This document shows positions 1,907 to 4,900 of a stretch of 32,000 bases of DNA, in pieces (the first letter of the stretch is position 1; each line of letters starts with the position of its first letter). Location of the stretch: assembly GCA_016196885.1 (NCBI GenBank), contig JACPWU010000056.1:1-32000 (forward strand). The letters are read 5' to 3'. The position numbers and the translations under genes were made by a program. Below the pieces are notes generated by a model that saw only the letters and a program-made list of their open reading frames with translations, had not been told where the DNA came from and did not search any database. This DNA comes from Chlamydiota bacterium (lineage in GTDB: Bacteria; Auribacterota; JACPWU01).

Positions 1907-4900
1907 CAGGACGTTTCTGCTTTAAACATTCCTAATATTTCTCAACCTATTGGAAATCAAACAGTTAAAGAAAGTATAGACGAGAAGTCTTTTTGGGAAG
2001 AGCTTCGCATTCCATCTGATATTGGGGAAATCACGGATCAGAATCTCATACCTAATCGACCTTCTGTTTTTATCCTCGAAGATATTCATTGTAATTTGGG
2101 AGTGCAGAAGAATATTGAAAGGATTTTAAAACAGTTAGAAGTTGAAAGTTCGAAGTTGGAAGAAAAAAATAAAAGCACTTTTAGAACTTCCAACTTCCAA
2201 CCTCTAACTTCTAACAAGCCTTTCTATGTCTTTTCAGAAGCGGCAGCCGGTTTCATGGATTTGTCCTTCTTTACCTCCTTTCCGGATCAAAAGGCAGTCG
2301 CCACCACTCAAGCAAAATTGTTAGACCATCAAGAGATCAATGGCCTGGAGTCTTTTCTCATCCATGCAGGACCTCAGAAGGCGATCGGATGGGGTGTTGA
2401 GGAGCTAGGGACGTATGTAGACAATGTGAAATTAATGAAGCAGTTGATGGAGGAGAAAGAACTTCAATCGCATGAGTGGGCAAATTTAGAAGAGACGTTT
2501 AAGAATTTAAGGACGAAAATTTACTCGAAGGAATTGTTGGAGTTGATGGAGAAGAGGGAGCAGTATAGGGAGTTTAAAATAGATTTAAGGGGATATTTAA
2601 ATCAAATATCAAAAATCAAAAATCAAAATGACAAATTAAAAATCAAATTGGAATATCCAACCATTCAGAAATTTCTTGAACTTCAAACGCTTGAGAAAAA
2701 AACGGATGCATCAAAGGTCGAGAGTGAATACCTTTCATTTTTATCTGAATTAGAAAAGAAACTTCCAAAAGAGGAATTAAATGAAGTATTGAGAAATGTA
2801 TTGGAGCATCGGTTGGGGAGAGTCAGCTATGAGGAGCATTATTTGTTTTTGAACAAATATCTAGAACCAGAAGATGGAGAGCGTGTCTCCCCTCTTAAGT
2901 TAAGAGGGGTTGGGGGAGTTATGCAAGAAAACAATAACCCCTCCGACTCCCCTTATTTTAAGGGGAGGGAAAAACAAGAAGAAAAAGAGCTTTATCCCAA
3001 TCTGAAGTTTTTTGCCCAGCAAATGTCCCTTATGAAGCAAATCTCTTGGGAGAAATTGGATCAAGAGATTAAAAGTCTCGAGGAAGAGCTTATAGAAAAT
3101 TTAGCGGTAACTTCTCAAGCAAAAGAATTGCTGGAATTGGAGAGAGACTATGACGTGTTAAAGCGTGTGGTGGCGATGGAAGGGAAACGAGAGGATTTAG
3201 AAGTTATATGGAGTGGGTCTTATTCCCCTCTTAAGATAAGAGGGGTCAGGGGAGTTATTAAAGAAGAAATAACCCCCTCAGTCCCCCTTAAAATAAGGGG
3301 GAGGAAAAACTCACAAAGAGAAGAGTATATAGAAAACTTTTCTCAAGCCTTAAAAAAGTTATGTGAACAAACCAACCTCCCCTTCGAATCCCCAGATTTC
3401 GGCGATATCTTCTCAATCGCCCAAAAATTCTATGCAAAAGTTCTTGAACGAGACCAGATCATGTACAAAAAAACCATCAAAATGATGGAAGAAAGAAAGC
3501 TGAAATATGCAGCCCTTGTCATCGGAGGTTTTCACACGGAAAGATTCAAAGAGCGTCTCAAAGCAGCCAACATCGGCTATTGCGTGATTGCGCCTCGCAT
3601 GAATAAGGCGGATGACCGCAGAGTTTATTTTCAAAAGATGAAGGAATTTGGATCGGTGGTGAGTGGAGAATCAAAGAGTGACATCATCGATCTTTTGAAA
3701 AAAATGGGCAAAGATTTTCTTTCTCAGGCCAAGCTTTCGGATGCTGATTTTGAAAGCTGGAGAACGCATTCTAAATTCTACCAACCGATTATCGAATCCC
3801 TTATGACAGAAAATACCGAACGAGGGAAACTTTTGGGCGATCCCAAACTTCTCAATTTTGTGAATGAGATTGATGCTCTGATTAAACGCGGCGGAGCTTT
3901 TAAAGATTTAACGGAAAGTTATTTAAAGAAGGTCTTGGGAAAAGAGGATTATCAAGAATTTGCACAGTTTCTTAAATCTGAAAAGGTTCAAAGTGGAAAA
4001 ACTCAGAGTAAATTAGAGAATCCAACGATTCCTTTGCAGTTGGGACTTGCAACAGGGAGAGCGCCAGAAGAACCTTTTCAGGCCCCAGCAGTTGAAGTGG
4101 CTCTAGAGCCTGCTCCAGCAGGAGAAATGACAATATCCCCATTGGTTTCCTCCATTATGACCGCTCGTGCTCGGGTGCTTTCTGGGGAGGGGGCATTGAT
4201 TGATGTTTTGACGGGTGAAGAGGGCCTTAGAGATCGTCAGGGTGTGGAGGTTTTGATTAAGCCTGAGGCGACAGGTTGTGCTGGGGCGATTCAAGACGCG
4301 ATTGATTTTTTTCACAAGCATGGGTACGCCATGGAGGCGGTTTCCGTGCGAGGTCCTGAGGCGGTGAAAGGTATATTGCCTGAGCATTATGGTGCCTCGG
4401 TGGTGGCTTCTATTCAAGGTCGAAAATATTTAGAGCAGGATGCAGCATTGACGGGAGCTTTTAAGAAGAATTTTAATGTTGATTCCTTAGAGGGTTTGAG
4501 GATTTTTGGAGGGCAGGAACTAATTGAAGAACGGGGTTATAGTGTAGATGAAATTGAGAGGGCATGGGATGCAACAAAAGTTAAGAGATTGGCATCCGGA
4601 ATTTATGTTTGTCAAGTTACATTGCGGGGAGAGACGGTTTATCTTCTGAACGGTCATGTTTCTACACTGATTAATTTATTCACGCGGCCAGGGGCTGTGA
4701 CCGTGGCCATTCGTGCCGTTCCCAGAAGAGAAGATGCAACACCTCTCTTGGTTTTGAGAGATGCGCTTGGGGGGACGAGTATTGCAGAAGCTAAAGAGGG
4801 GACGCTGCGCAAAAGATACTATACCCAACTTGATTCTAGACCTGACATTCAGAGCCTACATGTTCGCTATTCCCTCACGATCAATGGCTATCATTTGTCC

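Follow-up and report, generated by a model that had tools for sequence, protein, structure and literature searches.

Two in-frame hairpin-and-tail doublets in a giant Chlamydiota gene belong to a multi-phylum repeat family linked in other genomes to DUF559 genes

The 32,000-nucleotide (nt) stretch analysed here, called the window throughout, covers positions 1 to 32,000 of contig JACPWU010000056.1 in the Chlamydiota bacterium assembly GCA_016196885.1 and carries a giant open reading frame (ORF) containing two short palindromic elements in frame. An earlier interpretation of this DNA, referred to below as the sequence-only reading, had described the elements as two copies of about 87 nt, roughly four-fifths identical, each with three hairpins clamped by G4/C4 runs, and had attributed their spread to a neighbouring transposase of the RAYT type. 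The description is accurate: copies 2888-2975 and 3224-3310 show 85% column identity in alignment with a single indel, and each forms three G/C-clamped hairpins on either strand. When the minimum free energy (MFE) of the single-stranded DNA was compared with that of 200 dinucleotide shuffles, the elements reached -20 to -24 kcal/mol versus about -11.5 kcal/mol for the shuffles (z -3.9 to -5.2 over both strands; 0/200 shuffles folded as well); the folding of both strands had been proposed by the sequence-only reading. Searches for each hairpin, exact or allowing 3 mismatches, found no further full copy in the 32 kb.

Each copy is a doublet, in which a hairpin-plus-GGGGAGTTAT(G) unit is followed by a spacer of 10-11 nt and then by a second unit in inverted orientation; the 'middle hairpin' of each copy consists of the doublet's two tails face to face. 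A single unit measures ~35-40 nt and comprises a G/C-clamped hairpin (CCCCTCTTA-NNN-TAAGAGGGG or CTCCCCTTA-NNN-TAAGGGGAG), 2-5 nt, and the tail GG(G/A)G(G/A)GTTAT(G). The features are listed below, with scores from a covariance model, R1, that was trained on 88 units, none of them from Chlamydiota.

1829..8332, forward strand: host giant ORF, 2167 amino acids (aa), with a signal- or transmembrane-like N-terminal start
2888..2975, forward strand: copy A, cargo-less doublet, aa 354-382 (SPLKLRGVGGVMQENNNPSDSPYFKGR); fold z -4.2
2889-2909 (hairpin) and 2912-2922 (tail GGGGGAGTTAT), forward strand: unit A of copy A, with ATG at 2921-2923
2923-2933: spacer of copy A, 11 nt
2934-2944 (inverted tail ATAACCCCTCC) and 2949-2965 (hairpin): inverted unit B of copy A
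2885-2925 (+) and 2931-2971 (-): R1 matches of copy A, 53.7 bits (E 3e-18) and 39.8 bits
3224..3310, forward strand: copy B, cargo-less doublet, aa 466-494 (SPLKIRGVRGVIKEEITPSVPLKIRGR); fold z -5.2
3225-3245 (hairpin) and 3249-3258 (tail GGGGAGTTAT), forward strand: unit A of copy B
3259-3268: spacer of copy B
3269-3279 (inverted tail ATAACCCCCTC) and 3283-3301 (hairpin): inverted unit B of copy B
3221-3261 (+) and 3266-3306 (-): R1 matches of copy B, 54.1 bits (E 2e-18) and 36.6 bits
26022..26048, reverse strand: truncated intergenic unit, inverted tail TTAACTCCCCC plus left hairpin arm CCCCCTCTT, then GTTATGA

The truncated unit lies immediately past the stop of ORF 24658..26004 and falls under the R1 threshold because its hairpin is incomplete. 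The further relative that had been suspected at 26024-26044 is thus real: TAACTCCCCCTGCCCCCTCTT (26025-26045) represents the truncated tail and left hairpin arm, and six loci belonging to other phyla contain the identical 21-mer. The position of the two full copies in the same phase of one frame had also been emphasised. Both do occupy an identical codon phase of the 2167-aa ORF; however, the TAA stops of hairpin 1 (CCCCTCTTAAGNTAAGAGGGG), as read from the sequence, block 2/3 forward frames and leave one passable, so the shared phase is forced and provides no independent evidence. At Rfam gathering thresholds the whole window yielded matches to rRNA, 5S and tRNA alone, with none at the elements, and a promoter and terminator scan of 2700-3500 gave no signal at the elements.

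The only Pfam match of the giant ORF is a Maf domain at aa 1168-1303, and its best database match is a 100% identical 'Maf family protein, partial' from a Chlamydiae/Chlamydiota metagenome-assembled genome (MAG). The N-terminal ~700 aa form a domain common to giant-protein paralogues in related groundwater Chlamydiota MAGs (21-66% identity), and these homologues align with the giant ORF starting at residue 1. An AlphaFold model of this domain (window 1829-3928) has a mean predicted local distance difference test score (pLDDT) of 71.8, with 164 residues at pLDDT>=90; Foldseek searches of the model against the PDB returned nothing significant (best E 0.77), and the conserved motifs EDIHCN and GGFHTE in the domain sequence suggest an enzyme. 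The model places the elements in disordered loops, since aa 348-386 and 464-496 are predicted as coil of pLDDT<50 with helices of pLDDT 85-94 on either side.

Comparison of homologues shows that the two segments are insertions and not ancestral sequence. In protein alignments, the distant homologues P0005-P0009 show at both positions either a gap or a handful of unrelated residues, while elements are present at matching positions in the closest homologues, P0002 and P0003 (both from GCA_016178055.1) and P0004 (from GCA_016196915.1). P0004 carries an element at site 1 only; the site of copy B is without an element in P0004-P0009. Four genes from at least three MAGs therefore bear elements at the same sites. 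The sequence-only reading had regarded protein-level conservation without hairpin symmetry as the observation that would speak against a nucleic-acid element. At the DNA level the homologues' copies retain the hairpin symmetry, which favours such an element, and they differ by unit-level rearrangements: locus L122 has two tandem doublets at site 1, the first with its hairpin 1 split by ~32 nt (11053-11085), locus L123 has ~66 nt inserted in the loop of hairpin 3 (11190-11256), and both loci have additional hairpin and tail copies at site 2. An origin of copy B by tandem duplication was ruled out, as the inter-copy and downstream sequences are unrelated and each site keeps its own variant. An assembly artefact was likewise ruled out by the presence of elements in the independent MAG assemblies GCA_016178055.1 and GCA_016196915.1.

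The same comparisons bear on whether the segments could simply be a repeat or linker motif of the protein, unconnected with any nucleic-acid element. The two peptides are similar (SPLK.RGV.GV...) and lie in loops, as such a motif might. Against this stand the perfect palindromes in the DNA, the matches on both strands to a DNA model built from other phyla (E~1e-18), the conservation of third codon positions described below, and the occurrence of the same DNA between genes and in unrelated genes. A pure protein repeat is excluded, and we give practically no credence to any version of this explanation; the earlier argument for a nucleic-acid-level element was borne out by the R1 matches, by the distant homologues that have neither segment and by the conserved synonymous sites of the stems.

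Several further features of the host gene were observed. An AbiEii-type toxin gene (1017-1631) directly precedes the giant ORF, and such a gene also neighbours P0003 in L123. A third palindrome, heptamer-periodic and in frame, occupies 2134-2215 of the giant ORF (aa ~102-129; z -5.2); P0002 and P0007-P0009 lack it, and aa 116-128 have pLDDT<50. The linkers 'SRLEAK...SSLQPRASSQ' of P0004-P0006 look like the two arms of another palindrome in translation.

The stems are far more conserved than the synonymous sites around them. Between the window and locus L124, the flanking domain shows 52-56% protein identity and 47-49% identity at third codon positions, compared with 27/29 identical third positions in element 1 (p=1.4e-6 versus 150/306 in the domain flanks; p=9e-4 versus 49/79 in the +/-40 adjacent codons). 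Element 1 differs at 8 of 82 nt; 7 of these changes affect loops or spacers, and the 54 positions of stems and tails hold just one (p=0.002). The remaining comparisons agree and are weaker (p 0.008 to 0.12). Selection on the protein alone would leave third codon positions unconserved. Hairpin 3 exists as a site-specific variant common to different genomes, and this fits vertical descent with constraint at the DNA or RNA level but not repeated re-insertion from a master copy.

Conservation of this kind could also arise by exaptation, with the hairpins kept for a role in the host gene as an mRNA structure that influences translation or stability, a protein-binding or recombination site that favours domain shuffling between the giant paralogues, or a functional loop peptide. 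The stems and tails are near-invariant while flanking synonymous sites approach saturation and loops and spacers vary freely, and four genes from at least three MAGs still have the elements at these positions. However, no compensatory changes were seen, site 2 is missing in P0004, the hairpins of L122 and L123 have been split by secondary insertions with the gene still open, and the elements show no promoter- or terminator-like signal and match no Rfam family. We therefore regard exaptation as an improbable primary explanation, one that is compatible with, and not exclusive of, the explanation favoured below.

The window elements belong to a hairpin-and-tail family that spans many phyla. A scan for hairpin 1 (CCCCTCTTANNNTAAGAGGGG) in a set with one genome per GTDB species matched at least 119 stretches, at loci in Nitrospirota, Geobacter relatives, Patescibacteria, Dehalococcoidia, Bacteroidota, Pseudomonadota, Auribacterota and others. 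Nearly all of the matched hairpins have GGGGGAGTTAT(GA) 2-5 nt downstream or its complement upstream, with a second unit type, CTCCCCTTANNNTAAGGGGAG plus GGAGGGGTTAT, scattered among them. R1, although trained without Chlamydiota units, recognised both forward units of the window at E~1e-18 (54.1 and 53.7 bits) and both inverted partners (39.8 and 36.6 bits). Doublets with the architecture and length of the window copies occur in Uhrbacteria, Komeilibacteria and other loci. Hairpin 1 was also found in 69 putative viral contigs from IMG/VR (L207-L275), where 67/95 hairpins carry the tail; these contigs may point to a path of horizontal transfer, or they may be cellular DNA that was misclassified.

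Additional regularities were noted among the units. The hairpin loop is polar, reading mostly AGA, AGG or AGT from hairpin to tail (TTA-AGA-TAA) and the complement in the opposite orientation, and a strong ATGA(A/G) signal follows the tail, in solo units too. Arrays of units with ~220-253-nt periods occur at L031 2757-3436, L187 735-1444 and L196 12-1234, sometimes with an adjoining DUF559 gene. At L125 4923-4984 a palindrome, TCCCACCACCTCT...AGAGGTGGTGGGA, lies between hairpin and tail, and nested GC-rich hairpins occupy the same position in L027, L095 and L119.

In other genomes the units are associated with genes of the DUF559 family. All DUF559 genes in the hairpin-selected loci (7/7) are directly bracketed by units, and the unit-flanked genes match Pfam DUF559 (PF04480) at E-values of 1e-34 to 3e-37. 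The full form reads hairpin-tail ... tail'-hairpin (tail' being the inverted tail) around a ~370-nt DUF559 gene, which encodes a Vsr-like PD-(D/E)XK nuclease. At L014, L066 and L114 the start codon of the DUF559 gene is the ATG of the tail GGGGAGTTATG, inside GTTATG, and the final codons and stop of DUF559 fall within the opposite, inverted unit. The converse sample, 80 metagenome loci (289 kb) chosen solely by DUF559 protein similarity, yielded 418 R1 matches. Counted with a strict regular expression (regex), a forward unit lies <=80 nt from the start codon in 38/80 genes, with the last two bases of the unit serving as the AT of the ATG in 16, and an inverted unit overlaps or just follows the 3' end in 43/74 genes.

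The gap between inward-facing units is bimodal, being either 11-20 nt or 331-400 nt, the longer gap holding a DUF559 ORF. Cargo-less gaps of 11-20 nt, with an architecture like that in the window, were found at L033, L057, L081, L096 and L196 (about 31 nt at L170), and the window copies represent this cargo-less form, with 10-11 nt between tails. They also use the frame of the DUF559 ORF: 'GVM' in their translation includes the cassette start codon, and 'NNPSDSP' corresponds to the C-terminal 'NSP..' of the cassette. The literature searched contained no description joining DUF559 to palindromic repeats, and neither these motif strings nor the unit family. It has been reported that Vsr-fold nucleases act as homing endonucleases within coding genes and that hairpins lie upstream of their ORFs (PMC2677866, PMC3239194).

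It is possible that the units are generic REP-like repeats (REP, repetitive extragenic palindromic sequence) dispersed by some other enzyme or through recombination in the host, with DUF559 as a frequent passenger or preferred resident. In favour of this, most units are solo or in arrays that lack DUF559, units of viral contigs lack it as well, arrays with 220-253-nt periods exist in L031 and L187, and the sampled Chlamydiota DNA yielded no DUF559 gene. However, the start codon, C-terminal codons and stop of DUF559 are built into the units in several phyla, which speaks for co-evolution as a cassette and not for accidental capture; all seven DUF559 genes of the hairpin-selected loci and most of those in the converse sample are unit-flanked; and the gaps have just two modes, as expected of empty and DUF559-filled forms. 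On this evidence we consider DUF559 unlikely to be a mere passenger, though this is the strongest of the competing explanations.

The transposase named by the sequence-only reading lies 5 kb downstream of the elements.

8418..9419, reverse strand: Y1 ORF, 333 aa, Y1_Tnp (PF01797, E 1e-13) plus a DnaA_C-like helix-turn-helix (HTH)
8339-8367 and 9461-9489: perfect 29-nt terminal inverted repeats (TIRs), starting GGGGACGG
8339-9489: complete TIRYT/TIRtron unit

That the elements are REP- or REPIN-type repeats mobilised by this RAYT-like Y1 enzyme, with unit termini related to the middle hairpin, is suggested by its position, by the Y1_Tnp match, by a score of 79.2 bits against the NCBIfam REP_Tyr_transpos model (cut-off 80), by GGAGTTA being common to TIR and tail, and by the REPIN-like form of the doublets. 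The gene, however, is a TIRYT, a class also termed TIRtron that corresponds to subclass 2.1.2 of Quentin et al.; the TIRs of this class have the motif GGGGWSAS in common and are described as having no relation to REPs (PMC3733652, PMC6006769). The unit at 8339-9489 resembles this class in its Y1 HUH domain, its C-terminal DnaA_C-like HTH and its long perfect TIRs beginning GGGG(A)(C), and departs from it in that its TIR motif fits the GGGGWSAS consensus at 7/8 positions. The resemblance claimed between the middle hairpin and the TIRs did not hold up: the best local alignment scores 9, a value that 14% of shuffled TIRs and 21% of random 29-mers from the window also attain, and R1 has no match at the TIRs even at E<=10. 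A search of the window for the TIR pattern with 3 mismatches returned the two TIRs themselves and no TIR-derived repeats.

The distribution of Y1 genes points the same way. With the Y1 protein, tblastn found zero matches in ~1.6 Mb of unit-bearing loci from other genomes (~0.75 Mb hairpin-selected, 0.29 Mb DUF559-selected and 0.59 Mb viral), there is no Y1 gene near the hairpins of the putative viral contigs, and the elements of the paralogous loci L122-L124 have no Y1 gene beside them. The sole match over all loci was the same locus from two other samples (Logan assemblies), identical to the window and collinear with it, which gives no indication of a multi-copy TIRYT unit. The elements also lack GTAG and CGTC tags, and genuine GTAG-tagged REP doublets exist elsewhere in the window. 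Mobilisation by the neighbouring Y1 gene is therefore highly improbable, all the more as DUF559 lies between units elsewhere; the earlier 'REP/MITE-like' label (MITE, miniature inverted-repeat transposable element) for palindromic elements in frame in a coding region is supported, and their assignment to a RAYT is not. At the Y1 unit itself, the left end can fold (TAGGGGA...TCCCCTA, z -3.0) and CGTCCCCTAAAGA is directly repeated outside the right TIR.

In the related Chlamydiota DNA sampled (~133 kb, comprising the window, L122-L126 and L276), full units are confined to the two giant-gene sites and one intergenic composite where an ABC-transporter gene ends (L125 4833-4995). The remnant at 26022..26048 is the sole other trace of the family, and the flanks of L125, L126 and L276 are negative with the covariance model. 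The family does not look active or abundant in the sampled lineage, the sample being small, and the earlier description of the elements as 'colonising' a coding region overstates their present activity.

Taking these results together, the best joint explanation, which we favour with some reserve, is that the window copies are ancient in-frame doublets derived from a DUF559 cassette and lacking its ORF, with DUF559, and not the adjacent TIRYT, as the likely mobiliser. The doublets would have entered the ancestor of this gene subfamily as miniature derivatives of the cassette; alternatively, the cassette ORF may have been lost in place. Selection would have left only in-phase insertions in tolerant loops. 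Since then the doublets would have been inherited vertically, are now probably immobile, and may have kept their stems and tails through a sequence-level constraint on DNA or RNA. Mobility of the unit is something we infer; recognition and movement would most likely be the work of the DUF559 nuclease, in a homing-like or MITE-like manner. More broadly, we put forward tentatively, as a possibility somewhat short of even, that the units are the ends of an undescribed pan-bacterial selfish element, a ~0.45-kb cassette with a minimal DUF559 gene within two inverted 'hairpin + GGGGAGTTATG' ends, whose doublet stems are conserved long after insertion. If this is true, DUF559 gains a function and the phenomenon of Rickettsia palindromic elements (RPEs) extends far beyond Rickettsia.

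Several observations weigh against this explanation. Most units are solo and without DUF559, and another enzyme could therefore be responsible; no DUF559 gene was found near the 67 tail-bearing hairpins of the putative viral contigs, and none was detected by tblastn in the window or L122-L124, the loci L125, L126 and L276 being outside that search. No target-site duplication was identified, and neither copy has an evident direct repeat at its borders. Filled/empty site polymorphism was not found, presence and absence being seen only between diverged paralogues. In addition, the conservation tests are three comparisons that are not independent, and the stems are invariant without covariation, so that recognition of structure and of sequence are indistinguishable and a host function (exaptation) could explain retention.

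In-frame copies are not confined to the Chlamydiota gene. A regex defined 292 units, of which 29 are located in reading frames that stay open for >=100 codons to either side; 11 of the 29 are Chlamydiota copies. The Patescibacteria genes with in-frame units encode transketolase (at two sites), MurB, MurC and RuvB, the RuvB insert lying between the AAA-lid and winged-helix domains, and units are also borne by a MutL-like ORF, a ParB-like ORF and an Auribacterota ORF of >2600 codons. The translated units (L020, L075, L016, L080, L047 and L036) give peptides such as PPLKVRGGRGSYE. The MurB ORF of L075 additionally has a PDDEXK_3 nuclease domain fused N-terminally.

These findings matter for annotation as well as for evolution. 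In annotations the elements show up as artefactual 'PLK.RGG.GGV'-type peptides and as added N- or C-termini, and they can confuse the assignment of homology and of domain boundaries; their positions also reveal loops that tolerate insertion. RPE-like behaviour is here seen in an apparently different, multi-phylum family, in genes that include essential ones of the candidate phyla radiation (CPR). The DUF559 link offers a testable candidate function for a very common domain, namely the recognition or mobilisation of a specific hairpin-plus-tail DNA. In-frame palindromic repeats as such are known; the family, its cross-phylum spread, its presence in a Chlamydiota giant protein and in CPR housekeeping genes, and its bracketing of DUF559 appear undescribed in the literature searched.

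Other repeats and genes of the window stand apart from this family. The GTAG-tagged palindrome doublets at 23300-23355 and 26107-26151 (GTAGTCGCCC-N8-GGGC inverted pairs, z -6 to -6.7) are classical REP/REPIN-like and are a more plausible RAYT substrate class than the G4/C4 hairpins. Long intergenic palindromes at 10340-10430, 10905-10992, 12661-12751, 14924-15013 and 24603-24654 consist of ~7-nt periodic (AGAAKTC)n ... (GAMTTCT)n arms downstream of genes such as the YebC-family gene at 9585-10340 (fold z -6.4 for 10335-10432) and may be terminators or another repeat family. The window also holds the 3' end of a 23S rRNA gene (1-468), a 5S rRNA gene (545-660) and a tRNA gene (30747-30818).

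Compared with known systems, the present units share with REPs and REPINs the 20-40-nt hairpin, the single-stranded tag beside the stem and the inverted pairing typical of REPINs and BIMEs, with a forward unit followed 10-11 nt on by a reverse unit in both window copies. Intragenic REPs have occasionally been reported (PMC3116915, PMC3733652). The units differ in reading TCCCCTCTTAAG.TAAGAGGGG..GGGGAGTTAT, with GGGGAGTTAT as the tag and without GTAG or CGTC; in not flanking a Y1 gene, the Y1 gene of the window having unrelated 29-nt TIRs; in their cross-phylum distribution, REPs being usually species-specific; and in flanking a gene for a PD-(D/E)XK-type nuclease instead of an HUH enzyme. With MITEs (QMITE, ERIC, Correia) they share short, non-coding copies whose ends are those of a longer, gene-carrying element, as well as bimodal lengths, and MITE copies are capable of in-frame fusion with host ORFs (PMC10969869). 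The difference is that the 'autonomous' partner here encodes a ~120-aa Vsr-like nuclease alone and no recognised transposase.

The Vsr-like homing endonucleases (EDxHD, I-Bth0305I-type) provide a parallel for a Vsr-fold nuclease gene as a selfish insert in coding genes. Those proteins are longer, are associated with introns or split inteins and 'fracture' the host gene, whereas the DUF559 protein here is a minimal domain encoded between inverted hairpin units, and the in-frame copies are without the nuclease gene. To our knowledge, in-frame palindromic insertions are textbook material for Rickettsia only. The composition and consensus of RPEs appear unlike those of the present units. RPEs are palindromic repeats found in frame in many unrelated genes, where they encode fold-compatible loop peptides and are conserved in related genomes (PMC10969869); they are treated as CGTC-tagged repeats, a group for which no transposase has been reported (PMC3733652). 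The likeness is one of behaviour, in that the window and Patescibacteria units lie in frame at loop positions of unrelated genes. The present elements appear to be of another sequence family, measure ~85 nt versus ~100-150 nt, lack the CGTC tag, span many phyla versus one genus, and have in DUF559 a candidate partner gene that carries the element ends. Overall, the elements behave like RPEs, apparently with a different and undescribed protein partner.

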